Source: Betaproteobacteria bacterium
Lineage (GTDB): Bacteria; Pseudomonadota; Gammaproteobacteria; Burkholderiales; UBA3065
DNA length: 64,000 bases
Reading direction: 5' to 3'
Assembly: GCA_027490755.1 (NCBI GenBank)
Contig: JAIXXL010000021.1
Span: forward strand, 25,675 to 89,674
In this document: positions 7,438 through 63,582 of the stretch, piece after piece
How the letters are laid out: each line of letters begins with the position of its first letter
How positions within the stretch are numbered: the stretch's first letter is position 1
The notes under the pieces: generated by a model
Seen by the model: only the letters and a program-made list of their open reading frames with translations
Told to the model about the DNA's origin: nothing
Databases searched by the model: none
Program-made: the position numbers and the translations under genes

Positions 7438-7893
7438 ATGATGATTTACAAAAAAATGTTATTTATTGTGCTTTTTTTGGGATTAACAAGTGTCTCACAT
7501 GCCGGTGATCAAGATACTATGGGCAAAACCAAGCTGACCTTTACAATAGTAGCCCCCGCTGGTCTGGCTCAGGAAGGTAAACAATTGTTTCTTTCACACG
7601 CGGCGTGGATGAAGGCTACACACAGTAGAACAGGACCGAAAGCTCTGCTGAGTTATGATGTTTCAGAAATGGATGAGCTCACAAATCCAACAGACTTAAA
7701 ATCAAAGTCGACCGGGAATAAAATCTTTATACTGTCTGAAACCTATGAGTCATCTGCGGGCGTTGAAGACCATTTTGCCAAAACACCCGATTGGAAAGAT
7801 TGGCCTAAGTTTGATGCTTGGTTAAAAAAATGCAAGGTGACCAAGGCTTCATCTACAACAATTTTTAACTCACTTACTTGGGGCGGAAAGTAG
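7438..7893 (+). CDS. Secreted hypothetical protein (signal peptide)
   Basis: 151-aa ORF in an AT-rich patch. N-terminus 'MMIYKKMLFIVLFLGLTSVSHA' is a typical signal peptide. An RBS-like 'ctggag' lies upstream and a hairpin terminator follows. Confidence 0.6.
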   Translation: MMIYKKMLFIVLFLGLTSVSHAGDQDTMGKTKLTFTIVAPAGLAQEGKQLFLSHAAWMKATHSRTGPKALLSYDVSEMDELTNPTDLKSKSTGNKIFILSETYESSAGVEDHFAKTPDWKDWPKFDAWLKKCKVTKASSTTIFNSLTWGGK

Positions 7894-7920
7894 CCCGGCT
7901 TAAGTACAAAATCAAAGAAA

Positions 7921-7947
7921 GCCACTCATCGCAGTGGCTTTTTTTAA
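7921..7947 (+). terminator. Rho-independent terminator
   Basis: Hairpin 'gccactcatcgcagtggc' followed by a T-run (ttttttt), just after the 7438-7893 ORF. Confidence 0.6.
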
Positions 7948-8166
7948 ATCGGGGAATTGCCCTCAAGAAAAACTTTTCCAAGTTCGTCCGACACCTTAAA
8001 TCGGAGAGATTCGGGGGGCATTTCTCAGGAATGAATGGGCCGACGAAACTTGGCGGGTCATCCAGATTGAGAGGGCGTTAAATATAAATTATATATTGTA
8101 AATACAGGATTAGCATAAAAATAATAGCCCTTCGCGGAGACGTTCCTTTTTTAGGAGAAAAAAATC

Positions 8167-8883
8167 ATGGAACAAGCGATCGCGGTTCTATTTCCACTCC
8201 TGAGTGGTGCCCTAGTGGTGTACGGCTTTAATCGGCTCGATAGCTCTGTATATCAAGTTAAAGGCGTCGTTGGCCCCTATTTTGCTGCATTGGCTTTGTT
8301 ATTCGGGTTGTTTGCAAGCCTCACTGCGGGTGACGTTTGGCAAAGAGTCAGCAAAGCCAATGCACAAATCACCTCTGAAGCCAACGCGATGCGAACGCTC
8401 TTGCGAATCTCGCAAGCCATGGACAGATCGGATCTGCGCGTCGGCGACTTATTGCACGCTTATACTGACAGAGAAAATGCTACAGAAAAAACCATCGAGA
8501 ATACTGGTAGGGTTGATATTCAATCCACATCGGAAATCGAGGCTTTATTTAAAACAGCGATCGATCCGGCGAATTTTTCTAACAATGTGGTGCAGGCTGA
8601 ATTCTTGAAAGCCTTGGTTCAATTGCGCTCTGCCAGATTTGAACGGCTAGAGGCCAACAAAGCCCACCTGGCTATGTATAAGCTGGTTGTCCTGGGATTT
8701 TTCGGTGTGTTGACGCAAATTGCAATTGCATTATGCCACCCCGCTAACTACCGCGCACTGCTGTGTTCGGTCATGCTATTCAGCATTGCCTTTTCCTGCA
8801 CAATGGGCTTCGTCACGATGTTCGAGAACAATGAGATCTTCTCATCGCTTCTAAATTTAAATCAGTTTGAGGATATAAATTGA
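8167..8883 (+). CDS. Hypothetical membrane protein (DUF4239-like layout)
   Basis: 238-aa ORF in the AT-rich patch. It has two N-terminal and two C-terminal hydrophobic helices flanking a soluble helical middle, and 'aggagaaaaaaatc' RBS context. Confidence 0.55.
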   Translation: MEQAIAVLFPLLSGALVVYGFNRLDSSVYQVKGVVGPYFAALALLFGLFASLTAGDVWQRVSKANAQITSEANAMRTLLRISQAMDRSDLRVGDLLHAYTDRENATEKTIENTGRVDIQSTSEIEALFKTAIDPANFSNNVVQAEFLKALVQLRSARFERLEANKAHLAMYKLVVLGFFGVLTQIAIALCHPANYRALLCSVMLFSIAFSCTMGFVTMFENNEIFSSLLNLNQFEDIN

Positions 8884-8907
8884 TGGGGGCCAAGAGTGGC
8901 CTGCCCC

Positions 8908-9128
8908 TGACCTGACCCAGGATTTTCGGGCCAGTTGAAACTTGAGAGGATGGCTTCTGCCGATGAGGAGGGGCTTGTTGAGGAAGTCCCGGTTCAGTGA
9001 AGAGAGGATGGTTCGGACGTTGCGCGAGACTGTCCGAGTGCCGTTGAGCAAATGGGAGCATGCTCAACATCCTCGCCACGTCGCCCCAGGGTTTGGGTTG
9101 ACGTAAGTCTTTGTTGTTGATGGTGTTT
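8908..9128 (+). mobile_element. IS3-family (IS407-like) left-end remnant
   Basis: It starts with an IR-like 'tgacctgacccaggattttcggg...agttgaaact'. This is followed by a truncated orfA start encoding '(L)RKSRFSEERMVRTLRE', the characteristic MRKSRF(T/S)EEQ N-terminus. By eye it is roughly 80% identical over about 90 nt to the second remnant at 32881-32990 (opposite strand). Confidence 0.6.
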
Positions 9129-9129
9129 G

Positions 9130-9206
9130 TGGGGTGGCTGATGGGACTCGAACCCACGACAACCGGAATCACAATCCGGGACTCTACCAACTGAGCTACA
9201 GCCACC
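9130..9206 (-). tRNA. tRNA-His (GTG)
   Basis: The reverse complement folds as a cloverleaf: 5' 'ggtggctg' (with G-1), anticodon arm 'ccgga ttGTGat tccgg', T-arm 'gtgggttcgagtcccat', encoded CCA. Confidence 0.92.
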
Positions 9207-9247
9207 ACTGGACCAACGATCTACAACTGGCACTGCACGGAAGAGAC

Positions 9248-9324
9248 TGGCCTGCCCGACAGGAGTCGAACCTGTAACCCCCGGCTTAGAAGGCCGGTGC
9301 TCTATCCGGTTGAGCTACGGGCAG
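9248..9324 (-). tRNA. tRNA-Arg (TCT)
   Basis: The reverse complement shows D-arm 'tagctcaaccggatagagc', anticodon arm 'ccggc ctTCTaa gccgg', T-arm 'caggttcgactcctg', CCA. Confidence 0.9.
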
Positions 9325-9347
9325 TCTGCGTAACCTGCTTCGGCGCC

Positions 9348-9424
<77 letters not shown>

Positions 9425-9436
9425 AGGGCCGCGATA

Positions 9437-10471
9437 TTAGCCGTTTCTGGCCCGCCGCACCAGCGCATCGGTCAACTCGCGGGTGTTGGCCTTGCCGCCA
9501 AGGTCACCGGTGCGGATCTTGTCGACATTCAGCGTCTCGCCCACCGCCTTGCGCACGCGGGTGGCCTTGTCCTGCAGGCCAACGTGGTCGAGCATCATGG
9601 CGCTGGCCAAAATGAGCGCGATGGGGTTGGCGATGCCCTTGCCGGCGATGTCCGGCGCGCTGCCGTGCACCGCCTCGAAGATCGCTGCATCGGCGCCGAT
9701 ATTCGCGCCCGGTGCCATGCCCAGGCCGCCGACCAGGCCCGATGTCAGGTCCGAGAGGATGTCGCCGAACAGGTTGGTGGTGACCAGCACATCGAACTGC
9801 CACGGGTTCATCACCAGCTTCATGGCGCAGGCGTCGACGATGACCTCCTCGAACTCGATCCTGCCCTTGTAGCTCGCCTCGTACATCTCGCGGGCGGTCT
9901 CCAGGAAGATGCCGGTCAACGCCTTCATGATGTTGGCCTTGTGCACCACCGTGACCTTCTTGCGGCCGTTGGCGATGGCGTACTCGAACGCGTATTCCAG
10001 AATATGGCGCGAGCCCTGACGGGTGTTCACGCCGGTCGCCATGCCCACCGCGTGCGGGTCGTTGTCGATGGCGATGAAGTTCTCGAAGCCCATGTAGAGG
10101 CCCTCGAGGTTCTCGCGGCAGATGACCAGGTCGATGTTGTCGTAGCGGCCGCCGGGGATGATGGTCAGCGCCGGGCGGATGTTGGCGTACAGCTTGAAGG
10201 CCTCGCGCAGGCGCACGTTGATCGAGCGGAAGCCGCCGCCGGACGGCGTCTCGAGCGGGCCCTTGAGGCCCAGCCGGGTACGGCGGATGCTGTCCAGCGT
10301 GGCCTGCGGCAGCGGGTCGCCGGTGTCCTTGAGCGCGCCCATTCCGGCGATCTGCCGGTCCCACTCGAAGGGCGCCTCCACCGCATCCAGGACCGCCAGC
10401 GTGGCGTCCATGATCTCGGGCCCGATGCCGTCTCCGGCGATCAGGGTGGCGGGGATGATCTTGCGGGTCAT
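9437..10471 (-). CDS. Isocitrate/isopropylmalate dehydrogenase family protein (NAD-dependent IDH-like)
   Basis: Start taken at ATG 10471 ('MTRKIIPATLIAGDGIGPEI'). Family blocks 'NIRPALTIIPG', 'DLVICRENLEGLY', 'NLFGDILSDL' and 'FEAVHGSAPDIAGKG'. The upstream part of the track ORF has no homology-like content. Confidence 0.85.
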   Translation of the reverse strand: MTRKIIPATLIAGDGIGPEIMDATLAVLDAVEAPFEWDRQIAGMGALKDTGDPLPQATLDSIRRTRLGLKGPLETPSGGGFRSINVRLREAFKLYANIRPALTIIPGGRYDNIDLVICRENLEGLYMGFENFIAIDNDPHAVGMATGVNTRQGSRHILEYAFEYAIANGRKKVTVVHKANIMKALTGIFLETAREMYEASYKGRIEFEEVIVDACAMKLVMNPWQFDVLVTTNLFGDILSDLTSGLVGGLGMAPGANIGADAAIFEAVHGSAPDIAGKGIANPIALILASAMMLDHVGLQDKATRVRKAVGETLNVDKIRTGDLGGKANTRELTDALVRRARNG

Positions 10472-51246: not shown

Positions 51247-52161
51247 GTGGTCGGCAAAGGCACTGGGGCGGGAGACGTCTCTTCCGGGCGTGAGGGGGCG
51301 GTTGTCGTGATCGGGGTGATGACCGGTGCCGCGGTCTGGGGCTTGGTCTGGTATCCCTACCGCGCGCTTGAGGCCGCCGGGTTCTCTTCTACCGCATCGA
51401 CGGCGCTGACCTACGCCATCAGTCTGGCCGTTGGCGTCGCGTTGTTCGGCACCCGGCTCGGCGAGCTGCGACGGCACTGGCGCGCGGTGCTGCTGATCGC
51501 GGTCATCGCCGGCTGGACCAATCTTTCCTATGTGCTCGGCATGGTCGGCGGCGAGGTCATGCGCGTGCTGCTGTTGTTCTACCTGGCGCCGCTGTGGACC
51601 GTGATTCTTGCGCGCATCGTGCTCGGCGAGCGGCTGACGCTGCAGTCCGGTGTACTGGTCGCGCTGTCGCTGGCGGGCGCCCTGATCATGCTCTGGCCGG
51701 AGCAGGGCCTGCCCCTGCCGGCCAATGCGGCCGAATGGTTCGGCGTGACCGGCGGCATGAGCTTCGCCAGCATGAACGTGCTGTCGAAGGGCGCAGACCA
51801 GGTGAGCATCGAGACCAAGTCGGTGGCGACCTGGGCAGGCGTCCTCATCGTGTCCGCCATCTGGCTGGCGGTGGGCGGGGGGGCGTGGGCGGTGCCGGCG
51901 GCCGGCTGGGCGGAGTGGCTGATCCTCGTCCTGCTTGGTGTGGCGATGTTTGCCAGCACGGTGATCATTCAACACGGCATCCAGCGGGTCCCGGCCAATA
52001 CCGCGATCGTTCTGTTCCTGATCGAGCTGGTGGCGGGTGCGGTGTCCGCGGCGTTGTTGTCGGACGAGATGCTGCGGCCACAGGACTGGCTGGGTGGGTC
52101 GCTGATCATCGGCGCGAGTCTGGTGGCTGCGGCGAGAAAGGTAGGGGGCAGACGAGATTGA
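51247..52161 (+). CDS. EamA/DMT-family transporter
   Basis: About 10 TM helices with two EamA-like halves. GTG 51247 was chosen so that TM1 ('AVVVIGVMTGAAVWGLVW') is retained. Start uncertain (track ORF begins at 51130). Confidence 0.7.
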   Translation: MVGKGTGAGDVSSGREGAVVVIGVMTGAAVWGLVWYPYRALEAAGFSSTASTALTYAISLAVGVALFGTRLGELRRHWRAVLLIAVIAGWTNLSYVLGMVGGEVMRVLLLFYLAPLWTVILARIVLGERLTLQSGVLVALSLAGALIMLWPEQGLPLPANAAEWFGVTGGMSFASMNVLSKGADQVSIETKSVATWAGVLIVSAIWLAVGGGAWAVPAAGWAEWLILVLLGVAMFASTVIIQHGIQRVPANTAIVLFLIELVAGAVSAALLSDEMLRPQDWLGGSLIIGASLVAAARKVGGRRD

Positions 52162-52241
52162 GTGGACATGAAGCGCAGGTGTCGCTCAGCCGGTATCTGA
52201 CCGGGCCCAGCCTTTTTGGCGCGTGCTCCGGGGCACTGGTC

Positions 52242-54836
52242 ATGATGCGTCTTTCGCCTCAGTTGATTGCCTGGCTGGGTGGTGTAGCCAAGCGCGTTGA
52301 TCTGGCGATTTGGCGAAAGACCCTAGAGCTCGTGCTCGGGCGAGCGCCTGAACCGGCGCGTCACGGGCCCGGCACTGCGCAGACTCTCCGCTGGATCGAC
52401 CACCTGCTCGCGCTCAATGATGCCCTGCGTCTTTACTACTGCATCGCACAGGAGCCAGCGCGCGTCCACGAGTTGTCCTCGACTCGCTTGGTCACTTTTG
52501 TGCCTTGTGATGATTCACAGTTGGGCTTGCGCGCCACTGCCGTATCGGTCGCCATGCTTCTCGACATGCTTGGGCCGCGCCTGGGCAATACCCGCTTCGG
52601 ATCGTTCCAACCACTGGATCACGGCTTGTCTGAACGTTTGCGTGAACGGGTCCGCGCCTGGCGCGAATGGGCCGAGGCCAACGCGCTGAACGTCAACGCC
52701 CGCTGGATCGCGCGCGAGGCTGTTGCGCGGGGCATCCCGTATCACCGTGAACCTGGATCCAAGCTGCTCGTTCGGCTCGGGCATGGTGCGAGCCAGCGGC
52801 GACTCAACGGCCCGTACGTGGACCGGGTGAGCAGCGTTGCCACGCATTGGTCAAATGACAAATGGCAGACCAGCAACCTCTTCGCCGCGCACGGCCTGCC
52901 GACGGCCGGGACCCGGTTGGTCGCCAGTTTCGAGCAGGCTCTGGCCCAGGCTAAGCGGTTCGGCTGGCCGGTCGTCGTCAAGCCGCGTTCTACTGACAAG
53001 GGCGTCGGCATCACCATCAACATCACCGACGAACCCGGCCTGCGGCAAGCTTTTGAGCATGCCACCAGATTTCGCGGGGGTGTCCTCGTGGAGCGCCATG
53101 TATCCGGATATGACCATCGCCTGCTGGTGGTCGGTGGCCGCTTTGTCGCCGCTGCTCTCCGACTGCCCGCACGCGTCGAGGGCGATGGCCAAAGGACCAT
53201 CGCGGAACTTGTCCATGCCCTGAATCTGGCCCGGTTTACGGGTCGGTTGCCAGGCGCCTACCGCTCTGAGGTGCCTGTGGTCCTGGACCATGAAGCGCTG
53301 CGGGTCCTCATAGCCCAGGGGTATGCGCCGGGTGACGTTCCAGCGGCAGGCGCCACGGTCACCCTTCGTGGGAACGCGAATCTTTCGACAGGCGGGAGTG
53401 CCGAGGACGTTACCGAGCAGGTTCACGTCGACAACCGCGCGCTGGCGGAGCAAGCGGCACGCCTCATAGGGCTGTGCACGGCAGGGCTCGACCTGCAGAC
53501 GAGCGATATCAGCCGGTCTTGGCGCGAGGTCGGCGGCGCTATCCTCGAGATCAACGCCGGCCCGGGTCTGCCGGTGCACCACTCGAGAACGTCCCGCTAC
53601 ACGGTACGAAAGGCCATCGTCGACGATCTGTTCCCGGCAGGGGCGACCGGTCGGATCCCCACCGCAGGTGTGACTGGCAGCATCGGCAAGACCACAACCT
53701 GCCGCATGCTTTCGAGCATCCTGAAGCATGCCGGGCACACGGTAGCGCTCACGGGCACCCAAGGCGCCTTCCTCGACGAGCGGCAGTTGCGAAAGGGCGA
53801 TCTGGCGGGGGGGCGGGCGGCACTGTCTCTGCTGCAAGACCCTGCGGCCACCGCCTGCGTCGCTGAGCTGGCGCGTGGGGGCCTCATCCGTAGCGGCTTG
53901 GGGTTGGACGTCCTCGATGTCGGTTCGGTGCTGAATGTGTACGACAACCATGTCGGGCTCGACGGCATCGAGACCCGCGAGCAGATGGCCCGCGTCAAGC
54001 AGTTGGTCGTCAGGCATGCCCGGCAGCTGGCGGTCCTGAACGCGGATGACCCGCTATGTCTGGCGATGAGCGATGGTATGGACCCGACCAGGGTGTGTCT
54101 GGTCAGCGAGGCGATGAGTCCGCGACTGACGGCGCACCTTGAGGCGGGTGGCATGGTCGCGACGATGCGCGACGCGGAACGAGGCCCGCTGCTCAGTTTG
54201 CAACGGGGCGCCGACATTCTGGGGGAGATGCCCGTCGCAGACATCCCGGCGACGTGGGGTGCCAGATTCCGCCCGGCGATGCTCAACGCACTGTTCGCTG
54301 CGGCTCTGGCTCACGGGCTCCGCGTACCGTTTCGGCATATCGAGACCGGCCTGGCGGCCTTTACGTCCGATTACGCCAGCAACCCGGGGCGGACGAACCG
54401 CATCTCGGGTCTGCCGTTCGATCTGTGGGTCGCGTGGTGCGATGGCCCCGAGGCGTGCACCGAGATGTCGCGCTTGATGTCCCGAATCGGGGGCGATGTG
54501 ATAGGGCATCTGGTGATCTATGCGGTTGGCAATCGCCCTGACGCCTTCACCCGCGCCTCAGCAGACGCTGTCGCCGGCGCTTTCGATCGCTACTACTGCA
54601 CCGACATGGAAGAAGACCGTCGCGGACGGGCGTTCGGCGAGGTCGCTGGGCTGCTGGCCGACAGCCTTCGGAAGGCAGGGGTCGCCGACTCCGCGATCGT
54701 CGTCGAGCCCTCCAGCAGTGCCGCCGTAAAAAGGGCCTTGGCCGAGATGCCAGCGGGGGGCATGTTGGTCATCCAGACCTACCATCCCGACACAGTCATG
54801 GCCTCGGTGCGTGCCATGTGGCCCGACGCCGCCTAG
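52242..54836 (+). CDS. Cyanophycin synthetase-like protein (N-terminal region + ATP-grasp + Mur-ligase-like domain)
   Basis: ATG-ATG at 52242 (in-frame GTG alternative at 52179). ATP-grasp blocks 'GWPVVVKPRSTDKGVGI', 'VLVERHVSGYDHRLLVVGGRFVAAALR' and 'AILEINAGPGLPVH'. Mur-ligase P-loop 'GVTGSIGKTTTCRML' and 'VAELARGGLIRSGLGLD...NVYDNHVG', as in CphA. The upstream part of the 1080-aa track ORF overlaps the EamA gene in another frame. Confidence 0.8.
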   Translation: MMRLSPQLIAWLGGVAKRVDLAIWRKTLELVLGRAPEPARHGPGTAQTLRWIDHLLALNDALRLYYCIAQEPARVHELSSTRLVTFVPCDDSQLGLRATAVSVAMLLDMLGPRLGNTRFGSFQPLDHGLSERLRERVRAWREWAEANALNVNARWIAREAVARGIPYHREPGSKLLVRLGHGASQRRLNGPYVDRVSSVATHWSNDKWQTSNLFAAHGLPTAGTRLVASFEQALAQAKRFGWPVVVKPRSTDKGVGITINITDEPGLRQAFEHATRFRGGVLVERHVSGYDHRLLVVGGRFVAAALRLPARVEGDGQRTIAELVHALNLARFTGRLPGAYRSEVPVVLDHEALRVLIAQGYAPGDVPAAGATVTLRGNANLSTGGSAEDVTEQVHVDNRALAEQAARLIGLCTAGLDLQTSDISRSWREVGGAILEINAGPGLPVHHSRTSRYTVRKAIVDDLFPAGATGRIPTAGVTGSIGKTTTCRMLSSILKHAGHTVALTGTQGAFLDERQLRKGDLAGGRAALSLLQDPAATACVAELARGGLIRSGLGLDVLDVGSVLNVYDNHVGLDGIETREQMARVKQLVVRHARQLAVLNADDPLCLAMSDGMDPTRVCLVSEAMSPRLTAHLEAGGMVATMRDAERGPLLSLQRGADILGEMPVADIPATWGARFRPAMLNALFAAALAHGLRVPFRHIETGLAAFTSDYASNPGRTNRISGLPFDLWVAWCDGPEACTEMSRLMSRIGGDVIGHLVIYAVGNRPDAFTRASADAVAGAFDRYYCTDMEEDRRGRAFGEVAGLLADSLRKAGVADSAIVVEPSSSAAVKRALAEMPAGGMLVIQTYHPDTVMASVRAMWPDAA

Positions 54837-54846
54837 CGCCTTCCCG

Positions 54847-56646
54847 TCAGCGTGCGTTCGCCGTGTCGGCGGCGTTGGCCTCGAGCATCGGCTCCAGCAG
54901 TTCCTTGAGGCGGCGGATGACGTTGGTATCCAGGTCAGCTTTGTTGCGCTGCCGCCCCGAGTGATCCTCCACCGTCGTGAAGCGGTCGACAGGGCTGCCG
55001 GTGCGCAGTAGTTCTTCGTTACTCACCACCAAGACGATGCGGTCGACGTCCGGGTCCAGCAGAAGGGCGGTGCAGCGTGCGTAAAGCCCTCGCGCTGTCA
55101 GGACCAACTCGGTTCGGTCGGGCCCGACCGTCCGGTCGTGGTCGGTGATGTAACAGCGCTCGTTGCTCGCGGCCGCCTCCGCGCGGATTTTCTCGGCGCG
55201 CTTCCAGGCCGACCCACCGCCAAGGATTGCATGGACAGGGATGCGGCCAGCGTGCGGAAGTACCGTCTCGAACATCTTGCGCAACAACGCTCGCGTACGC
55301 GGACCGCCGGACACGAAAGGTGCCGAGTTCACCTCGATGATGACGGCAGAGTTCTCGTGCCAAGGTATGGATGCGTCATCCGTCATAAGGTCCACACCGG
55401 CGATGTCCAGCCCCATCTGCCGCGCGGCCCGCACGCAGATCGCCGCGTTATCCGGGTGCAGATGGTCCGTTACGTTCCCAGATTCACCACCCCACTCTGT
55501 GGATTCTCGCGGGCGCAGGTAGACCCATCGTCCCTCAGTCGGCACAGACTCTACGGTGAGTCCCTGGCGGGAGAGTTCGGCCTCGGCGACCTTGTCGATC
55601 TGCGGCACATTCGATCGCTCCCACAATGGCTTGAGGCTCGCCTGGTGGTTTGCCAGCGTGATGAGCTCTTGTACCGTCGATGTCCCATCGCCCTGAATAC
55701 GTCTCGGAAAGCGCGTCACAGCAAACAGCACGCTGCCGAATCCCACCAGTACACGGTGGCAGATTCCGGGCGCCTGAGCTTCGACGAGGACCCGGCGCGA
55801 CAGTCTGTTTGCAGCCTCGAAGGCGGCGGCGAGGGTCGTCTCGTCGCCGATGCCGGTGGTCACGCCCTCTCCCCGGTCACGGTCGTTGGGTTTCACAACC
55901 ACGGGCCATCCGATCGCACGCGCGGCCTCAGCAGCTTGCTGCTCATCCAGAACCAGATGGTTCAAAGGCACAGGGATCCCAACCTGGCGCAAGATCTGCG
56001 TGGTCAGGGATTTTCTTTGAGCTGCACTTGCACCCAGATGAGAATCGGTGGAGACGTTGCTGCGGTGCAAGCGCATGGCTCTCGCTCCCCAGCCCAGGCA
56101 GTAGCGCGATGCTCCGAGGTGCAGGAAGGGAATGTCAGCGTCGTACGCGGCCCACAAAAGGCCGATCGAAGACTTGCCGCCTTCGCTCATGGTGCTTCGG
56201 ACCGGTTCGATGAACCCATCATGGATGCTCTTCTGCAGGCTCTCGTGGTCTCGTTCCGCAGCCGCGGGTTCAAGCCCCGCTTGCAGGATCCGTATGGCCA
56301 ACTTGTAGGCACTGTTGCGCTGCGCGGGCGGAAGAGGGTCGACGACCGGGACGCGGGCCACCACTTCGAACATGTCGTTCTCACCGGGCACGATCCGAAC
56401 GACAAGCCCGGCCTCGAAGACCGGTGCCCGGGCGGCCCGAAGGAGATGCGCGGCGAGCGCCAGCAGCCGATCGACGAGCAGCGCCGGGGTCGGGCTGGCG
56501 CCGGCCGACTCACCGGGCGGGAGACCAGTCCAACGCTCGAGCACTTGATCGAGTCTGGCTATCTCGCATGTGGTCTGGAGCGTGGCCTTGTCGACCCGGA
56601 GCGTGATGGTTCGCGTCCTTTGGCGGAGGCCGGGTAGGTAGCTCAT
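54847..56646 (-). CDS. CphA2-like ATP-grasp protein (CphA-type N/ATP-grasp regions, vestigial Mur-ligase region without P-loop)
   Basis: 599 aa. 'GKSSIGLLWAAYDADIPFLHLG...CLGWGARAMRL', 'GWPVVVKPNDRDRGEGV', 'VLVEAQAPGICHRVLV' and 'AVIIEVNSAPFV' are paralogous to 52242-54836. At the position of the P-loop it reads 'ILGGGSAWKRA'. Confidence 0.75.
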   Translation of the reverse strand: MSYLPGLRQRTRTITLRVDKATLQTTCEIARLDQVLERWTGLPPGESAGASPTPALLVDRLLALAAHLLRAARAPVFEAGLVVRIVPGENDMFEVVARVPVVDPLPPAQRNSAYKLAIRILQAGLEPAAAERDHESLQKSIHDGFIEPVRSTMSEGGKSSIGLLWAAYDADIPFLHLGASRYCLGWGARAMRLHRSNVSTDSHLGASAAQRKSLTTQILRQVGIPVPLNHLVLDEQQAAEAARAIGWPVVVKPNDRDRGEGVTTGIGDETTLAAAFEAANRLSRRVLVEAQAPGICHRVLVGFGSVLFAVTRFPRRIQGDGTSTVQELITLANHQASLKPLWERSNVPQIDKVAEAELSRQGLTVESVPTEGRWVYLRPRESTEWGGESGNVTDHLHPDNAAICVRAARQMGLDIAGVDLMTDDASIPWHENSAVIIEVNSAPFVSGGPRTRALLRKMFETVLPHAGRIPVHAILGGGSAWKRAEKIRAEAAASNERCYITDHDRTVGPDRTELVLTARGLYARCTALLLDPDVDRIVLVVSNEELLRTGSPVDRFTTVEDHSGRQRNKADLDTNVIRRLKELLEPMLEANAADTANAR

Positions 56647-56782: not shown

Positions 56783-56881
56783 ATGCAAAATCAAGCTCCG
56801 CTCGCCCCGTATGGCGCGCTTCGTTTCACTCCGATCTCTACCAAAGTCGGTGGTGGCAAGGGTCTCGACAAGCCCGCCTGA
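56783..56881 (+). CDS. Unannotated 32-codon ORF (candidate precursor/primer peptide)
   Basis: 'gaggga'-N7-ATG. Translation 'MQNQAPLAPYGALRFTPISTKVGGGKGLDKPA'. It ends 20 nt before the HExxH ORF and is too short for the ORF track. Only positional evidence supports it. Confidence 0.3.
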   Translation: MQNQAPLAPYGALRFTPISTKVGGGKGLDKPA

Positions 56882-56901
56882 TCCCCGAGTGGTCCTCCAG
56901 T

Positions 56902-58014
56902 TTGCCATTGCTCGAACCTTGCTTTGCTGAAGGTGCTTCGCTTGACGCGGACATAAACGCCGCGCTTCGTGAAGGGGTGGCATGGTGTGCGCAACAAGCC
57001 GGGCTTGACCCGGCTTGTTGTTTTGATGGCGGGCCGATGCCGTCTGCGTGGTGCGGCAGCCCGGTCGATTTCGCTGCCTATTACGATTGGGCCATAGCCT
57101 TGACGTCGGCCGTCGACGATCCGCCGGCTCCCTGGGAGCCGGCTTCTTCTTCCGGTTCTGATGCAGCGGCGCGGCGTTGGCGTCCCTTTCTGCAACATTT
57201 CTCCGCCGCGTTCGCCTCGTCGGCCCGACCCGCGACCGATCACGCGACCCGTAACGTGTTGGCCGCGCCCGCCGTCGTCACCTTGGGCGAGCCTTGGTTC
57301 GACGCCGCAGCGAGCGAGCGCATCGTCCGCTGGTTGGACCTTGAGCCTGACAACGCCATGGCGCTGGTCGGCCTCAGCGCCGCTGAACTCCACGAGGCTC
57401 GCAGCGATGTCGAGCGCGCATTGGCTGCGTTGGCGGCCTGGGCACCCGGTTTCCACGGCGAGTTCGTCGCGGTGGTGCGGCGGTTGATCGTCGTCAAGCC
57501 GTCTGGCTCGCAGCGGATGACCTTCCGTGCCGCATCTTCGTTTGCGCTGTGGGGCGCTCTGGCCGGCAACCAGCAGGTGCACCCGCGCTGGTGGGACTGG
57601 GTGCCCACCTTGGTCCATGAGACGGCGCACTCGATCCTGTTCGCCCTGTCGCGACACGCCCCACTGGTCGAGAACGACCCAGCGGAGCGTTACGCCTCGC
57701 CCTTGCGCGATGATCCTCGGCCGATCGACGGCATCTACCACGCAGCATTTGTCTCGGCGCGCGAGGCGGTGGCTTTGGGCGAGTGTCTGCAGGCGATCGA
57801 TGCTGGCGTGGCACTTCCCGGAGTGGGTGATGATGAAGTCAGCGCTGTGCGCGCCGACTTTGCCGCGGTGCGGGAGAACTCGGTGCGGTCTTTTCATGAC
57901 TGCGTCGCCGTGCTCGAGCGGCATGCGCGGTTGAGCCCGTCTGGTCGCGACATACTTGATACGCTGCGACGGGAGCTTGAGGCGTTGGTCGGTGCGGCGG
58001 TCCACGCTGCTTAG
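56902..58014 (+). CDS. HExxH-motif domain protein (peptide beta-hydroxylase-like family)
   Basis: 370 aa, TTG start. The central 'PTLVHETAHSILF' HExxH motif sits in a helix-rich protein with no signal peptide, so it resembles the HEXXH-motif domain family rather than a classical zincin protease. Confidence 0.65.
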   Translation: MPLLEPCFAEGASLDADINAALREGVAWCAQQAGLDPACCFDGGPMPSAWCGSPVDFAAYYDWAIALTSAVDDPPAPWEPASSSGSDAAARRWRPFLQHFSAAFASSARPATDHATRNVLAAPAVVTLGEPWFDAAASERIVRWLDLEPDNAMALVGLSAAELHEARSDVERALAALAAWAPGFHGEFVAVVRRLIVVKPSGSQRMTFRAASSFALWGALAGNQQVHPRWWDWVPTLVHETAHSILFALSRHAPLVENDPAERYASPLRDDPRPIDGIYHAAFVSAREAVALGECLQAIDAGVALPGVGDDEVSAVRADFAAVRENSVRSFHDCVAVLERHARLSPSGRDILDTLRRELEALVGAAVHAA

Positions 58015-58087
58015 CTTCGCCAGCCAGCCCCGAGGCTGATCAAGCCCGTGCGGGTTGACTTGCCGCGGCAGCCCTAGCCCGCCAACC

Positions 58088-58999
58088 ATGAACATCCTGC
58101 TCACCGGGGCATCGGGGTATTTCGGCAGCGCGCTTTTGGCCGAACTCTTGCCGGCCCACCGCGCGAACCTGCACCGGGTGACCGTGCTAGTTCGCGGGGA
58201 CCAGGCAGCGCAGTCGGGTCGGTCAGACGTCCCCACGCTGCGCGAGATGGACTTGCACGCGTCGACGCTCCGCTCGCGAGGCATCGATACCGTCATCCAT
58301 CTTGCTGCAGCGCGCTCGTCCACAGATATCCCAGCGCAGAACCGCTCCCTGGAGTTGAGCCGCAGACTGCTCGAAGCCTCAGCGGGTGCAGATGTGAGGC
58401 GCCTCGTCCTCGCGTCCAGTCACGCCGTGTACGGGACACAGCCAACGCCGTGGGACGAGGATGTGACTGTTCCCGCGCCCGTGACCTTGTACGGCTTGGC
58501 AAAACGCGCAACCGAGTTGATGCTCGATGCCAGTCCGGTGTCGACGGTCTCGGCCCGTCTGGCCAAGCTGGTCGGGCCGTCGCCGAGGTTCCGCGTTCAG
58601 CCAAGCGAACTCCCCCACGTCCTCTTGTCGTACGCCCTCAAGGGAAAGCTGGTTGTGATGCGCAACCCTAAACAGCGTTTCGATTTCCTCGACGTGCGCG
58701 ATGCAGTGCAGGGGGTCATCGCGATCGCCAACCACTCTGGGGAGGGGTTGCCAGGTGCGATCAACTTGGGTTCAGGTGGCGTGGTGATGAGTGCGGAGGT
58801 TGCCGCAATGGTCGATGACGTGTTCCGACCAATGGGTTTTCCCCTGCGTTATCAATTCGAGACCGAGAGTACGCCAGCACCGAGGGACTTCGGGATGTCC
58901 ATCAAACTTGCCCACCGTTGCTTGGGGTGGAGCCCGGAAATCGCCCTGCGGATGACGCTTGAAGGTATTGCAGGGCAATGGGCAATACGTGCCCTCTAA
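58088..58999 (+). CDS. NAD-dependent epimerase/dehydratase (extended SDR)
   Basis: ATG 58088: 'MNILLTGASGYFGSAL' (Rossmann GxxGxxG) and catalytic 'YGLAK' (YxxxK). Confidence 0.8.
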   Translation: MNILLTGASGYFGSALLAELLPAHRANLHRVTVLVRGDQAAQSGRSDVPTLREMDLHASTLRSRGIDTVIHLAAARSSTDIPAQNRSLELSRRLLEASAGADVRRLVLASSHAVYGTQPTPWDEDVTVPAPVTLYGLAKRATELMLDASPVSTVSARLAKLVGPSPRFRVQPSELPHVLLSYALKGKLVVMRNPKQRFDFLDVRDAVQGVIAIANHSGEGLPGAINLGSGGVVMSAEVAAMVDDVFRPMGFPLRYQFETESTPAPRDFGMSIKLAHRCLGWSPEIALRMTLEGIAGQWAIRAL

Positions 59000-59038: not shown

Positions 59039-62000
59039 TCAATGAACCCAAGTGCGCAACAGTTCGTGCAGCCCGGTCAGCCTGCTCCGGGTAAGCAGCG
59101 AGGCTTTGTCGGAGTACGCATGCACCTGCTCATCGACGAACTCGACCCGATCGATCTGTCCCAGGGGCATCCCTCTGGCGAGGAACTCGTCGGTCTGCAC
59201 CACGACCACCAGCGCCCCGACATCCTTTCTTAGAACCAAGGCTCGGGTTCGCTCATATAAGACCCTTCCCGACGCCATTGCATGCGTTCGGCCTGACGGT
59301 GCAATTGTACGTTCTGCGCTGCTCAAGAACGCCGCGAGCCCTTTTCTGCAGAGTTCTTGCCATCGTGTCTCCGCCGCGCTCCACGCCGCGTCCCCACCCA
59401 CAAAAGCCTCCACAGGTATCCGGCCTTTGTTCACCAGCAGTCGGTCGAGATACTCGGGCAGGTAGCGGCGCGAGATCTCTCCGCCACCCAGCAAGGGCGC
59501 GTAGTTCACCTCATTGATGACCGCACCGTTCTCGTACCATGGCCGGGTGATGTCGGGGCTGATGATGTCCACGCCAGCGACCTCCAGGCTCATGAGCGCG
59601 GTGGCATCGAGCGCGATCCTCAGGTTGTCCGGATGAAGGTCGTGCGTAACTTCCTCGTCGACGCCGCCCCATGCCGAGGTCTCGATGCGTCGCAGACGCA
59701 CAAAGCGCCCCTTGCCGGGGACCGACTCGGCTAGCCAGCCGTCGCGCTTTAGGGTCTGCACGGCAAGTTCGTCCAGGGCGATCGGGTTGCACTGCCACGG
59801 CGGGATGAGCGACTGTCGCGCCCGTTCTCGCTCGACCAGCTCCCGTACTGTCGATTCGCCGTCCCCGTAGACGCCGATTGGGAGTCTGCGCACGGCATAC
59901 AGCAGCCGACCCGCGGTGATGAACAGCCGATGGCAAACCCCCTCGACCTGCTGCTCGACCAGTACCTGCTTGCCTCGTGATAGCTTGAGCGCTGCCGCGA
60001 ACGCAGCGTCGAGTGTCTCTGCATTGACATCGACGCTGACGCCTTCGCCACGCTCGCGGTCGGCCGGTTTCACGACCACCGGGTAACCCAGCCGGTCGGC
60101 GATCTGCTGCGCTTGTTCGCGTGCGCGCGCAACCCCGTGCCGCGGCGCTGGCAGACCTGCTTCGCGCAACAACTGCGCGGTCACGCGCTTGTTCTCTGTC
60201 AGCGCCATGCCGAAGACCGAATCCCGGTCGGTCGTGCTCCGGTCGATCCTCCGTGCCCGTTCACCCCAGCCCAATTGGTAGATGCCGCCGCTGATCGGTC
60301 GGAACGGTACGCCAGTCTCCCGCGCGACACGGAGCACCTCGAACGTGGATTTCCCGGCAGATACAGCTTGGGCGTGGCGCTTTACCAAGCTTTCATAGAT
60401 CTTTGCAAAGAACCCTTCGCGGAGCGAGGCATCTGCAGGGTCGGCGTTGTTCGCCCATTTGGCGACGGCGGATGCCTGCTTGAGAACATCCTGCAACACG
60501 CTATTTGGCGCCGCCTCGGTACCATTCAGACGGATAGTGGCTTGCCAACGCCCAGCGCGTGCGGTGTCAGGCTGACAGGTGAGGACCATCGGCTCATCAA
60601 ACATCGGCACTCGGACCGCATGCAGCAGGGCCAAGGCAAACCGCAAGACGCCGTGCAGCCAGAATCGGGCCCGCTCCTCTGTCCCCGAGGGAACCGTCTG
60701 GGGTTCCTCTGCGCGACCCGCATGGCCCGCGAGCAGTGTCAGCCAAGCCTGGAGTCTTAAGGCGTCTGGCTGGGCAGGGGGCTCGAAAGCCACATTCAGC
60801 GTTCCATTGGTGGCGACATGCGGCGCAGATGCCATTGGGGTCTTGCCACTCGTGGCCCCGGTCAAGTACTTGTGGAGCAGGGCCTGCACCGCATCGTGCT
60901 GGATCTTCCCTTGCTCGTTGCGGGGTATGCGATCAACCACCACTGCAGCGTGCAGCGCATGTGCCCCCAATCGTTCTTTCACATGCTCGACCAGGTGCGG
61001 CGGAGCGGCATCCATGGCGCGCCTGAGTTCGACAAGTGCCACAGGGACGTCCTGTAGAACAGAGTGCCGTATTGGCATGACGTGCGCGTCAGCGACAGCG
61101 GGGTGTGTCCGTAGGCACTCCTCCACCTCGGCGGGGTAGAGGTTGACGCCGCTGATGATCATCATGCCGTCGGCTCGACCGCGGTGGACGAGTTGCCCGC
61201 CAGGGGTCAACAAGCCTATATCGCCCGTCGCAAACCAGCCCTTCTTGAAAACGCGGCGGTTGTGTTCTCCCTCACCCACATAGCCGCAGATCGCAGCCGG
61301 GGAGTGGATCTCGATGAGGCCTTCTTGTCCATCAGGTAAGCGCTTGCCGTGCGCATCGACGACCCGCAAGCGGAAACCCGGGAGGGGGCTGCCCACGCCA
61401 CCGGGAAGCGTAAAAACATCCTCTGGCCTGGTTATCGTCGATGTGTGTGTCTCGTTGGTGCCGTAGAACAGGAACAGGTTGGGTGTCAGGCGGTCACGGA
61501 TCCTCTGGCGCAGGCCCATCGATACTGTTGAGCCTCCGATCATCAGGGCGTGCAGTCCAGCCAAGGGGCCCTTTCGCTCATTTTCAGGCTTCCTCAGCAT
61601 CAGCTCGGCGTGGAAGGCCGTGCCGTAGACAGCAGAGACTTGGCCAGACGTGACGAGAGACTCGAAATCGAACGCACCTGGTTTGCCAAGAAACACGCTG
61701 GCGCCTATGGCAAAGGCCTCGAGGCAACGTTGTTTGGCGGCATAGAAATGCATGCTCACCAAGCTGAGCAATGAGTCTTCGGGCCCGTATGGGAGCCACT
61801 TTGGCCCCAGGTTTGCGCGGGTGAGCTGTTGTCGATGGGTCACCGGTATGACCTTCGGCACGCCTGTGGACCCAGACCCGGTCACGTAGAGCCACGGTTG
61901 GTCGGCCACGTCTTCAGCGGCCGGTGGGACAGAGTCAGGGTCACCCGAGAGGGTCCCGAAGTCGATCGTGGGTAGGCCGTATGCCTTTGATTGAGGGGTG

Positions 62001-62356
62001 GCGTCGCCAGTCAGGATCGTGGCGGCGCTCGTGAGTGACAGCTGGCGTCGTGCATGTTCTTCGGGAGTCGAACTTGCGAGGCTCAGCGAGGTTGCACCAA
62101 TGTGCGCGAGTGCGAGCATTGCGACCAGATGGTCCAAAGGATCGTCCAGCGCTATGGCTACGGTACTACCCGTAACAATCCCGTATGCAAGCAGTCCGGA
62201 AGCGGTGGCGGCGACCCGCTGTTGCAATTCCACATAGGTGAGACGTTGGTCCGAGGTGGCGACAGCCGCCACGCCGGGATGCTGAATTGCCTCCCGGGAG
62301 AGGAGGCTTACGATGTTCTGTGACACTAGGGGGCTCTGCGGTGGTCGGCTAGGCAA
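59039..62356 (-). CDS. Fusion protein: ANL-superfamily adenylate-forming domain + CphA-like N/ATP-grasp module
   Basis: N-terminal approx. 500 aa: 'YVTGSGSTGVPKVIPVTH', 'FYGTNE', 'GWFATGDIG', 'GRADGMMIISGVNLYPAEVEE' and 'PRNEQGKIQ' (AMP-binding core motifs). C-terminal approx. 580 aa: 'GKSTFEVLRVARETGVPF...QLGWGERARRI', 'GYPVVVKPADRERGEGV', 'VLVEQQVEGVCHRLFI', 'AVINEVNYAPLL', then a P-loop-less region 'FVGGDAAWSAA'. An alternative GTG start at 62326 overlaps the GT stop (tagtg). Confidence 0.8.
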   Translation of the reverse strand: MPSRPPQSPLVSQNIVSLLSREAIQHPGVAAVATSDQRLTYVELQQRVAATASGLLAYGIVTGSTVAIALDDPLDHLVAMLALAHIGATSLSLASSTPEEHARRQLSLTSAATILTGDATPQSKAYGLPTIDFGTLSGDPDSVPPAAEDVADQPWLYVTGSGSTGVPKVIPVTHRQQLTRANLGPKWLPYGPEDSLLSLVSMHFYAAKQRCLEAFAIGASVFLGKPGAFDFESLVTSGQVSAVYGTAFHAELMLRKPENERKGPLAGLHALMIGGSTVSMGLRQRIRDRLTPNLFLFYGTNETHTSTITRPEDVFTLPGGVGSPLPGFRLRVVDAHGKRLPDGQEGLIEIHSPAAICGYVGEGEHNRRVFKKGWFATGDIGLLTPGGQLVHRGRADGMMIISGVNLYPAEVEECLRTHPAVADAHVMPIRHSVLQDVPVALVELRRAMDAAPPHLVEHVKERLGAHALHAAVVVDRIPRNEQGKIQHDAVQALLHKYLTGATSGKTPMASAPHVATNGTLNVAFEPPAQPDALRLQAWLTLLAGHAGRAEEPQTVPSGTEERARFWLHGVLRFALALLHAVRVPMFDEPMVLTCQPDTARAGRWQATIRLNGTEAAPNSVLQDVLKQASAVAKWANNADPADASLREGFFAKIYESLVKRHAQAVSAGKSTFEVLRVARETGVPFRPISGGIYQLGWGERARRIDRSTTDRDSVFGMALTENKRVTAQLLREAGLPAPRHGVARAREQAQQIADRLGYPVVVKPADRERGEGVSVDVNAETLDAAFAAALKLSRGKQVLVEQQVEGVCHRLFITAGRLLYAVRRLPIGVYGDGESTVRELVERERARQSLIPPWQCNPIALDELAVQTLKRDGWLAESVPGKGRFVRLRRIETSAWGGVDEEVTHDLHPDNLRIALDATALMSLEVAGVDIISPDITRPWYENGAVINEVNYAPLLGGGEISRRYLPEYLDRLLVNKGRIPVEAFVGGDAAWSAAETRWQELCRKGLAAFLSSAERTIAPSGRTHAMASGRVLYERTRALVLRKDVGALVVVVQTDEFLARGMPLGQIDRVEFVDEQVHAYSDKASLLTRSRLTGLHELLRTWVH

Positions 62357-63582
62357 TGCTGTACCCGCTCCATCAGCCGGTCGCCATTGCTTTGTAGATC
62401 ATGAAGTTTTCGCCCGGCCCCTCGAGCGCGGTCAACGTGGCGCCCATACACGGCCTCATCGTCAAACAACTCCTCCAGTCGTTGCGAAACATGCTCGACG
62501 ATTTCTTGGGGCACTAACCTTAAGTAGGGGGCTTCCTGGTACTCGGGCGGGAAGGCTATTGTCTCGCCGCCCTCCCCAAGTATCTCCGGGATACCGCCGG
62601 AGGTGCTGCCGATAACCGGGATACCATTCAGCAAAGCCTCAACGACCACGCGGGGACCGCTGTCCCACCAAAGGCTGGGGGCCAGAAGCACGCGAGCGCG
62701 GCCGTAAACCGGGCGCATATCCCGGGTGTTTGGGGTTAGGAGGACGTTTCGGACCTCATCCGGATCGATGCCCGTCTGGCTGGCGACGCTTTCAAGTAAG
62801 GCCAGCCATGTCGCGCGCGTGTCGACCACCTCAAACGGTATGTCTGGTCGACGCTGCGCCATGTGCAGGATCAGTTGAGCGACGAACACGCCTCCTTTGG
62901 CAGGTATCGGGTTGATAAACAGAACCCGCTCCCGCCTGTGAGCGTTCGCTGTGACCGGTGCCGGGTCTACGAAGGTCCCGAGCGGAATCATGTGGTAGCC
63001 CTCGCGCTGGCGATACATCTCAGCCGTTGCGCGGGTGTCGGTGAAAATGAAGTCGACATCTCTACACCATGTTGTTCCCCGGTTGTTGCCGTGCATTAGG
63101 AAGACACCTACGGCGATGTTCCTGCGGTGTGCCTCGTTCGCCGTCAACAGTGTGATGAGGGAGTTGTCGAAGAACAAGACGAGATCTGGCGAGTCTGCAT
63201 CGAGCAGGCGGCAGTACTCATCGAACCAGCGTTGCTCCTCGAAAGAGAGCATCAGCCGGCGCTGGCTGCGCTCGGTGACAAGGAGGCGGTGTCGTAGCAA
63301 GCCGTCGGGCACCTCGACGAATCTCCCTTTCTGTGCAAGCAGCCTTGGCCACAACTCTGCGCGACTCGCCATGCCCTGGGGGTTGACGAAAACCGTCGCG
63401 CCAATTGCCGCAACGTCGCATCCACGCAGTGCCAATTGGTTGAGGCACTCCCGGACCATCAGGCCGGCTCCGTTTGCGGTGTCGAGGAGCGTATTGGGGG
63501 AGGCCCAGAGGATTCTGATTGGCGGACTCATCTTGGATCCAACAACCGCAGCGGCGAGACTGTATCTAGCAGATTCAATCAC
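62326..63582 (-). CDS. Glycosyltransferase family 1/4 (GT-B)
   Basis: C-terminal 'LLAPSLWWDSGPRVVVEALLNGIPVIGSTSGGIPEILGEGGETIAF' is the GT1 EX7E-type region. The probable ATG start at 63531 gives 'MSPPIRILWASPN'; the track ORF starts at GTG 63582. Confidence 0.8.
   Translation of the reverse strand: MIESARYSLAAAVVGSKMSPPIRILWASPNTLLDTANGAGLMVRECLNQLALRGCDVAAIGATVFVNPQGMASRAELWPRLLAQKGRFVEVPDGLLRHRLLVTERSQRRLMLSFEEQRWFDEYCRLLDADSPDLVLFFDNSLITLLTANEAHRRNIAVGVFLMHGNNRGTTWCRDVDFIFTDTRATAEMYRQREGYHMIPLGTFVDPAPVTANAHRRERVLFINPIPAKGGVFVAQLILHMAQRRPDIPFEVVDTRATWLALLESVASQTGIDPDEVRNVLLTPNTRDMRPVYGRARVLLAPSLWWDSGPRVVVEALLNGIPVIGSTSGGIPEILGEGGETIAFPPEYQEAPYLRLVPQEIVEHVSQRLEELFDDEAVYGRHVDRARGAGRKLHDLQSNGDRLMERVQHCLADHRRAP

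Follow-up and report, generated by a model that had tools for sequence, protein, structure and literature searches.

An amide bond can be made without a carrier by two main routes, adenylation, through an acyl-AMP, and ATP-grasp chemistry, through an acyl-phosphate, and both are of interest for biocatalysis. The two routes meet in cystargolide biosynthesis, where valine is N-acylated by the ANL enzyme CysC before the ATP-grasp enzyme CysD extends it at the C-terminus; neither step uses a carrier, and the pathway includes a methyltransferase (PMC11427300). Among ATP-grasp ligases, CphA2 polymerizes β-Asp-Arg dipeptides and binds Arg through an acidic residue, D212 in the StCphA2 enzyme (PMC10273328). 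The G domains of CphA enzymes activate and extend the C-terminal carboxylate of the chain via the equivalent of Arg309 (PMC9427784), and a Cx19HxxEH zinc site is a feature of CphA1 N domains (PMC9262961). The present analysis concerns a gene in a 64,000-nucleotide stretch of a Betaproteobacteria bacterium genome (assembly GCA_027490755.1, contig JAIXXL010000021.1, positions 25,675 to 89,674; hereafter the window) that encodes an ANL domain followed by a CphA2-like module in one polypeptide, here called the fusion. As judged from its residues, both halves look catalytically competent and the G domain does not seem to be built for cyanophycin. Our preferred reading, at a probability of about 0.4, is that the product may be a bifunctional, carrier-independent ligase that would attach an acyl cap and then elongate with an amino acid, making two amide bonds by two ATP chemistries.

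The maximal open reading frame (ORF; 59039..62356, minus strand) is unbroken and counts 1105 codons from a TTG; residues are numbered on this ORF throughout, unless stated otherwise. The true start is very probably the GTG at 62326, which gives a product of 1095 aa, because that product is 100% identical to database protein P0001, the homologues in an alignment of 25 all begin at the residue aligned with this GTG, and the start overlaps the stop of a family 4 glycosyltransferase (GT4) gene as TAGTG (62324–62328, minus strand). An overlap of this kind appears typical of translational coupling. It is next to inconceivable that the long ORF represents two genes whose fusion is a product of assembly or is decaying. 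The identical protein is present in the NCBI genome and in two read-level assemblies, dozens of full-length homologues with 34–57% identity align through the junction, and catalytic residues are retained in both halves. The GC content at third codon positions (GC3) is uniform as well, with 0.70 and 0.73 in the two halves and a higher value of 0.88 in dapC, a pattern that would be expected for a single gene inside an acquired island. No point in favor of an artifact was found, and within the reach of sequence data an artifact is excluded. The initial annotation had described a single 1105-aa ANL and CphA-like fusion and had singled out the region near 60.8 kb for a check of continuity. The fusion proved genuine and continuous there; the gene lies on the minus strand and its product is probably 1095 aa long.

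The N-terminal half falls within the ANL superfamily, with Pfam scores of 150.2 bits for AMP-binding (gathering score 29.9) and 45.3 bits for AMP-binding_C (gathering score 24.5). The motifs are A3 TGSGSTGVPK (residues 159–168), A4 SMHFYAAKQR (201–210), A5 YGTNE (298–302), A7 ATGD (376–379), A8 GRAD (393–396) and A10 GK (483–484, Lys484), with GRADGMMIISGVNLYPAEVEE at residues 393–413. Every motif that the initial annotation had quoted for a full ANL core set was located. The A3 P-loop, A7 xxGD, A8 GRxD hinge and A10 lysine have key residues that are invariant in 25 homologues (S160, G161, T163, G164, K167, G298, N300, E301, G377, D378, G392, R393, D395 and K483, in the numbering of alignment A1, which is one below that of the ORF). 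In all 25, motif A5 (window about 61451–61465, minus strand) has Asn in place of the usual AMP-contacting Thr, the Glu being retained.

Motif A4 has no FD. The Asp at the α-amino-binding position (GrsA D235) is absent, and the basic residues K208 and R210 are conserved in the 25 homologues. As this aspartate is absent, the substrate is probably not a standard α-amino acid. The TIGR01733 model of nonribosomal peptide synthetase (NRPS) amino-acid adenylation gave 161.6 bits, short of its cut-off of 317.4. The best NCBIfam and PDB matches of this half were long-chain fatty-acid-CoA ligase (E = 3e-60), MenE, MatB and 4-chlorobenzoate-CoA ligase. A substrate prediction was tried and no specificity could be called, because the nearest structures are only 20–25% identical and of mixed classes, covering CoA ligases, aryl-AMP ligases and NRPS A domains.

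The C-terminal ~590 residues appear to have the layout of CphA2, in which an N-like domain is followed by an intact G domain and by an M domain that is truncated and has no P-loop. This layout is supported by domain HMMs made from the alignment, by the Foldseek span on TeCphA1 given below and by the missing P-loop. Only the G domain of this module is predicted to be catalytic. Pfam ATP-grasp models match from residue 720, and the NCBIfam cyanophycin synthetase model aligns to residues 658–955 by its positions ~148–448, the G-domain part only. Residues K723, K763, R810, R824, D930, E949 and N951 are conserved or invariant in the family, as expected for the ATP-binding lysines, the Mg-binding Asp, Glu and Asn and the carboxylate-binding Arg of ATP-grasp enzymes, and are equivalent to K220, K261, R309, R323, D431, E450 and N452 of TeCphA1, for which residue roles were taken from PMC9427784. 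The substrate positions of TeCphA1 are altered: E215 is replaced by A718, H267 by R769, R269 by E771, N394 by T893, S396 by A895 and T397 by W896. In CphA1, E215, H267, N394 and S396 are binding residues for the β-Asp-Arg chain and the incoming Asp. At the E215 position, 16 of 24 relatives have Arg or Lys. The G domain also has a distinct P-loop, DRERGEG, and a distinct large loop, RRIETSAWGG. The N-like domain is without the Cx19HxxEH motif, and its Cys594 is near-invariant. In the M-domain remnant, VGGDAAWSAA aligns to the Mur-ligase P-loop VTGSIGKTTT of a neighboring 892-aa CphA-like protein; no GxxGK(T/S) motif was found anywhere in the fusion protein.

An AlphaFold2 model of the fusion, built with 25 homologues, had a mean predicted local distance difference test score (pLDDT) of 84.7 and a predicted template modeling score (pTM) of 0.54. 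Foldseek matched its N-terminal half to MenE, 4-chlorobenzoate-CoA ligase, McbA and aryl-AMP ligases, and its C-terminal half to TeCphA1 over 626–636 columns. As this span exceeds the G domain and the C-terminal remnant, residues ~517–660 probably take the place of the CphA N domain, an assignment made from the alignment span only. The C-terminal half had been read as a paralog of both neighboring CphA-like proteins, and sequence comparison bore this out, with 40% identity over 459 aa to a 599-aa protein (E = 1e-92) and 31% identity to the 892-aa protein (E = 7e-39). The 599-aa protein has the same altered signature of P-loop and large loop as the fusion, while the 892-aa protein retains the Asn/Ser aspartate-binding loop of CphA1. 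In a neighbor-joining tree the G domains of fused and unfused sequences were intermixed in a star-like pattern; all that it showed was a position of the 599-aa type and the "partner" proteins outside the main fused clade, and it was not used further.

The fusion was compared with the closest described systems. CphA2 has the same N, ATP-grasp G and inactive, shortened M domains in about 600 aa and only one active site (PMC10273328), and its structures (PDB 7ta5 and 8fxh) match the G region of the fusion (E = 3e-39 and 8e-35). Unlike the fusion, it has no ANL domain. Where it has an acidic Arg-binding residue (D212 in StCphA2, E215 in TeCphA1), the fusion has Ala718 and most relatives have Arg or Lys. 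The two also differ in the P-loop and the large loop, and the fusion is neither cyanobacterial nor paired with cyanophycin genes. With CphA1 (PDB 7wac and 7lg5) the fusion shares the G fold, over the Foldseek span given above, and the catalytic Lys, Lys, Arg, Arg, Asp, Glu and Asn. It has neither an active M domain nor the zinc motif of CphA1, its substrate residues are replaced, and it scored far below the NCBIfam cut-offs (TIGR02068, 200 bits against 850; NF010623, 218 against 877). Because the cyanophycin-binding residues of the module are replaced, the cyanophycin-synthetase context assumed in the initial annotation is not supported.

The likeness to the ANL amide-bond synthetase CysC and the ATP-grasp enzyme CysD lies in the logic proposed here for the fusion, carrier-free N-acylation of an amino acid followed by an ATP-grasp extension of the C-terminus; an S-adenosylmethionine-dependent methyltransferase also works in their pathway, the two are separate proteins, and CysD is not described as CphA-like (PMC11427300). 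Methyltransferases also recur beside loci of the ANL/ATP-grasp family. N-acetylglutaminylglutamine synthetase (Ngg, TIGR03103) and GshF likewise have an acylating or ligating domain ahead of a CphA-type ATP-grasp domain. The TIGR03103 model aligns to residues 689–941 of the fusion (E = 1e-40), and the GshF structures 3ln6 and 3ln7 match its G domain. Instead of an ANL domain, the N-terminal partner is a GNAT domain in Ngg and a glutamate-cysteine ligase in GshF, and neither is known to have an N-like domain or an M remnant. The stand-alone ANL enzymes McbA, CfaL, MenE, MatB and 4-chlorobenzoate-CoA ligase share the ANL fold and core motifs, and the model superposes on MenE, 4-chlorobenzoate-CoA ligase and McbA at 3.2–3.5 Å. 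They differ in being only 20–25% identical, in having Thr where the A5 motif of the fusion has Asn, and in not being joined to an ATP-grasp module. By these comparisons the fusion belongs to the ANL and ATP-grasp superfamilies and stands outside CphA1, the substrate-binding pattern of CphA2 and NRPS A domains.

A word-indexed search of 5.8 billion clusters gave ~28 full-length homologues with 40–57% identity. Of the best 150 proteins from an exhaustive HMMER scan, which covered 1.84 billion representatives at 50% identity, 68 had ANL and G in one chain, with ANL first in every case. The fusion family is thus rare but not unique. Full-length fusions were returned from 185,579 species genomes for Marivita, a Comamonadaceae bacterium and Ramlibacter, and adjacent split ANL and G genes were found in loci of Planctomycetia, Ottowia and Chlorobium. 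The one named member, from Roseicyclus mahoneyensis, is annotated merely as "AMP-binding protein". The Marivita gene (L007:9998-13180) stands alone and has a GC3 of 0.52, compared with ~0.72 in its neighbors; its low GC3 and isolation suggest a recent horizontal acquisition in that lineage.

The forms of the family include ANL-G, ANL-G-G, ANL-ANL-G and ANL-ANL-G-G, and, among single proteins, P0129 reads ANL-ANL-N-G-M, P0131 ANL-ANL-G-N-G and P0154 ANL-G-G-M. These three, together with P0177 and P0181, are metagenome proteins with multi-module chains, among which N-G-M-G-M also occurs. Such colinear chains suggest one module per bond. The joining of ANL and G, conserved, split and multiplied across lineages with its order fixed, looks selected rather than accidental. 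The fusion, the 599-aa and the 892-aa protein all scored below the cut-off of every NCBIfam model. A literature search covering ANL/ATP-grasp or CphA fusions, CphA3, CphA-like enzymes, amidoligases and HExxH with ATP-grasp did not return a description of the architecture. It had been noted from the start as unrecognized for cyanophycin synthetases, and both searches agree with this.

The gene contexts of the fusion vary from locus to locus. The closest relative, in locus L087, has the same overlapping order of GT4 and then fusion (67% identity for GT4 and 54% for the fusion), and in L089 the order recurs in the form of a GT4-TPR-sulfotransferase protein. In L001, L004 and L013 the fusion is accompanied only by a second G paralog (600 aa in L001 and L004) and a methyltransferase. 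Locus L008 contains an O-methyltransferase, the fusion, a paralog, an HExxH gene, a peptide gene and a flavin monooxygenase. L090 contains GT41, a kinase, SapC, the fusion, a FemAB-like protein, a hydrolase, two ATP-grasp paralogs and a weak PP-binding match. The fusion stands alone in L007, L009 and L088. Unfused 600-aa paralogs elsewhere adjoin methyltransferases, 2-oxoglutarate oxygenases or GNAT-BKACE proteins. Pfam gave no matches for the large flanking proteins of L087, L089 and L090. Given the loci in which it stands alone and the L087 pair without a peptide/HExxH set, the enzyme appears to be self-sufficient.

The initial annotation had also reported that no carrier protein or thioesterase was present in the protein or the visible cluster, and this was confirmed. 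Pfam and NCBIfam detected no PP-binding, condensation or thioesterase domain in any gene of 47.5–64 kb, a six-frame scan for GxDS gave matches solely in wrong-frame ORFs, and tblastn with AcpP, DltC, a peptidyl carrier protein and an aryl carrier protein found no carrier. The 10 kb past the window end, as read from L095, a second assembly of this organism, likewise contained none, and overall no carrier domain lies within about 30 kb. A carrier protein is not needed by acyl-CoA ligases or amide-bond synthetases. The cluster of the closest homologue (L087) has adenylation–thiolation(–sulfotransferase) and condensation–thiolation–thioesterase proteins and a phosphopantetheinyl transferase, 3–8 kb from the GT4–fusion pair. 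Because enzymes of these two kinds need no carrier and the L087 relative has carriers nearby, the missing carrier is not in itself anomalous, and the puzzle that the initial annotation had seen in it is weakened.

Beside the fusion, the window contains a 32-aa ORF with a GAGGGA Shine-Dalgarno sequence 7 nt upstream, an αKG-HExxH-type peptide β-hydroxylase gene and the gene of the 599-aa CphA2-like protein (Table 1). The alphaproteobacterial locus L020 has in the same position a 102-aa ORF with four repeats of APLAPYGD.xNLSLSTKVGG.KP, and related SKVGGK peptides are found in L016 and L008. A six-frame motif scan of all fetched loci had matches restricted to these peptide ORFs. Used as a database query, the L020 peptide returned 13 more members with 1–4 repeats and E values down to 5e-18, and three of the 13, seen in context, again lay with a 600-aa CphA2-like ligase and an HExxH enzyme. 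The repeat can be written as (I/L)LAPYG..x..(S/A)TKVG, in 1–4 copies, and it lies beside a ~600-aa CphA2-like gene and an HExxH gene in every locus examined. The trio of ATP-grasp, peptide and HExxH genes thus recurs in seven loci (the window, L008, L016, L020, L091, L092 and L093). In L091 it is joined by a separate 482-aa Mur-ligase-M protein that is 45% identical to the M domain of the 892-aa protein.

All characterized αKG-HExxH enzymes act on ribosomal precursor peptides, which they hydroxylate (PMC12636437). With these homologues and the trio in seven loci, and with an HExxH score of 89.7 bits against a cut-off of 40 next to a conserved precursor peptide gene, part of the island appears to be a set like those for peptides that are made ribosomally and modified post-translationally (RiPPs). 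A paper describing the LAPYG...TKVG peptide family was not found in the literature search. The trio is put forward as a candidate for a RiPP class that has not been described, one that would supply direct, testable substrates.

As a bifunctional ligase, the fusion would work in the following order. The ANL half would adenylate a carboxylic acid other than a standard α-amino acid and donate the acyl group directly to an amino acid or short peptide at its amine, in the manner of amide-bond synthetases; a route via CoA is an alternative for this step. The G domain would then phosphorylate the free carboxylate of the ANL product, held by the conserved Arg810, and add an amino acid chosen by its own RRIETSAWGG loop. 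The chain would grow from N to C from the acyl cap. Further G modules, provided by the 599-aa protein here and within the same chain elsewhere, could add residues, possibly iteratively, and the translationally coupled GT4 would glycosylate the island product, which would be exported, perhaps after sulfation. A logic of capping and then elongating has a characterized precedent, acting in trans, in CysC and CysD (PMC11427300), and would explain the colinear architectures in which ANL precedes G. The loading of a starter or cap had been suggested in the initial annotation and is still the logic that fits best, as ANL always precedes G and CphA G domains extend a C-terminal carboxylate. If the reading holds, coupling of both chemistries in a single chain would offer a compact template for N-acyl peptides without NRPS machinery and would extend the cyanophycin-synthetase fold beyond nitrogen-storage polymers.

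Several points weigh against this reading. No member of the family has a characterized product, substrate or activity. The gene contexts are heterogeneous, and the Thr-to-Asn change in A5 appears to be a family-specific deviation from the ANL pattern. An amide-bond synthetase and a CoA ligase look indistinguishable at the level of sequence. The inter-domain geometry of the model is unreliable at a pTM of 0.54, and as a result no hand-over path is visible in it. In seven loci, moreover, the 599-aa sister type lies in tight linkage with a ribosomal peptide and a RiPP hydroxylase; since it shares the signature of the fusion, the acceptor could be a ribosomal peptide instead of free building blocks.

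The last point leads to the most serious of the alternatives, RiPP tailoring, which we nevertheless regard as rather unlikely. Here the fusion, the 599-aa and the 892-aa proteins would act on the LAPYG...TKVG peptide encoded 2 kb away, placing an aminoacyl or acyl group on a conserved Lys or on the C-terminus, before or after HExxH hydroxylation, glycosylation or sulfation. The precursor-like ORF with its good Shine-Dalgarno sequence directly upstream of the hydroxylase, the precursor peptides on which characterized HExxH enzymes act (PMC12636437), the 13 database homologues that make the peptide family real, and the recurrence of the trio, with a motif scan free of other matches, all speak for it. 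So do the adjacency of fusion and trio in L008, the P-loop and large-loop signature common to the fusion and the 599-aa protein, and the protein- or peptide-directed enzymes of other fusion loci (GT41, kinase, SapC and FemAB-like). Nevertheless, only two of ~13 fusion or split loci examined have peptide and HExxH genes, namely the window and L008; near the other fusion loci neither LAPYG/TKVG-type peptides nor HExxH genes were found, and the GT4–fusion pair of the closest relative in L087 is without both. The L091 trio is without any ANL, so that the two gene sets are separable, and the core repeats have no conserved acidic residue that ATP-grasp chemistry could activate. A clearly unlikely alternative is that the ANL half is an ordinary acyl-CoA synthetase feeding another enzyme, with the fusion merely co-localizing or co-regulating the two and no direct hand-over. 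Its best NCBIfam and PDB matches are CoA ligases, the YPAEVEE sequence of the A8 motif is CoA-ligase-like, and the model superposes best on thioester-forming conformations (root-mean-square deviation 3.2–3.5 Å). Coupled steps are favored instead by the strict order with ANL first, by the colinear multi-module chains and by the adjacency of split genes; no conserved acyltransferase lies beside the fusion, and the fold is matched equally well by amide-bond synthetases such as McbA (Foldseek rank 33).

We consider it highly improbable that the fusion is a storage-polymer synthetase of the cyanophycin type, in which the ANL half would supply a primer or cap for iterative polymerization of Asp/Arg-like residues. 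The closest solved structures of the C-terminal half are indeed the polymerases CphA1 and CphA2, the N, G and truncated-M layout is that of CphA2, and the neighboring 892-aa protein has the CphA1 aspartate-binding loop and a predicted active M domain. Set against these are the scores far below the CphA1 cut-offs, the loss of E215, the holder of polymer Arg, to Ala here and mostly to Arg or Lys in the family, and the replacement of H267 by Arg, R269 by Glu, N394 by Thr and S396 by Ala. In addition, cyanophycinase and isoaspartyl dipeptidase were not seen among the neighboring genes scanned, and the contexts of the fusion are natural-product clusters. A wider reading goes beyond the bifunctional ligase, and the odds are well against it: ANL and CphA2-like modules may represent an unrecognized modular, carrier-free peptide assembly with one module per amide bond, colinear from N to C, in some clusters grafted onto the ribosomal LAPYG...TKVG peptide and its HExxH hydroxylase. 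In such a ribosomal hybrid, ATP-grasp and ANL enzymes would extend or branch the peptide without tRNA or a thiotemplate. The modular family and the adjacent peptide, HExxH and CphA2-like set are of more interest than was expected, and the carrier puzzle is weaker than first thought.

Table 1. Positions of the fusion gene, its domains and neighboring genes in the window, and of related peptide ORFs in other loci
Feature	Position	Strand	Details
EamA-family transporter (exporter)	51247..52161	+	Same direction as, and overlapping, the 892-aa gene
892-aa CphA-like protein	52158..54836	+	G domain and intact Mur-ligase M domain (GSIGKT); CphA1 aspartate-binding loop
599-aa stand-alone CphA2-like paralog	54847..56646	-	N-like, G, truncated M; active-site signature of the fusion
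32-aa precursor-like peptide MQNQAPLAPYGALRFTPISTKVGGGKGLDKPA	56783..56881	+	LAPYG...TKVG repeat peptide family
αKG-HExxH-type peptide β-hydroxylase	57037..58014	+	TIGR04267, 89.7 bits, cut-off 40; HETAH at aa 194
NAD-dependent epimerase/dehydratase	58088..58999	+	Convergent with the fusion gene
Fusion gene	59039..62326	-	1095 aa from GTG 62326 (very probable start); maximal ORF from TTG 62356, 1105 aa
M-domain remnant, truncated, P-loop-less	59042..59482	-	aa 959-1105; alignment to the 892-aa paralog
ATP-grasp G domain	59483..60376	-	aa ~661-958; Pfam, NCBIfam and structure-hit alignments
N-like domain (putative)	60377..60808	-	aa ~517-660; position of CphA N domain; Foldseek span
Flexible linker, low-confidence	60809..60856	-	aa ~501-516; pLDDT <50 at model residues 500-515
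ANL C-terminal subdomain	60905..61129	-	aa 410-484; Pfam AMP-binding_C, E = 1.7e-11; ends at A10 catalytic Lys484
ANL N-terminal subdomain	61280..62296	-	aa 21-359; Pfam AMP-binding, E = 9e-44
GT4 glycosyltransferase	62326..63531	-	Stop overlaps fusion start
Peptide ORF, L020	11730-12038
Peptide ORF, L016	12714-12896	-
Peptide ORF, L008	16690-16911	-
Peptide ORF, L091	8001-8195
Peptide ORF, L092	5851-6021
Peptide ORF, L093	8001-8258

The island that contains these genes is bordered by dapC on one side and by thiG/trmB on the other, as seen in gene calls of the same contig (L006 and L095), and has a GC content of 60–65%, compared with 68% in the flanks. With its precursor-like peptide, HExxH hydroxylase, GT4 and sulfotransferase, the neighborhood does not appear to be a cyanophycin cluster. 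The sulfotransferase (L095:8135-8752) lies beyond the window end, together with a 277-aa protein and two proteins without assignment. The 892-aa protein has a divergent N-terminus and P-loop, scored 575–580 bits against cut-offs of 850–877, and is co-transcribed with the EamA exporter. The αKG-HExxH protein has no Pfam match, and the longer ORF that overlaps it (56791-58323, minus strand) is spurious. Another ATP-grasp gene, of 601 aa (L095:2861-4666), lies ~6–8 kb past the window end, beyond thiG and trmB, and has the same Pfam pattern (RimK, ATP-grasp_5) as the 599-aa CphA2-like protein.

Promoter and terminator scans and Rfam gave nothing relevant, and no rRNA was found in the window. At window positions 6000–10000 and 9130–9424 (minus strand), a stretch beside a tRNA-His/Arg/Pro cluster has a low GC content of 55–57%, compared with ~69%. 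This low-GC stretch could be an integrated element and is unrelated to the fusion.

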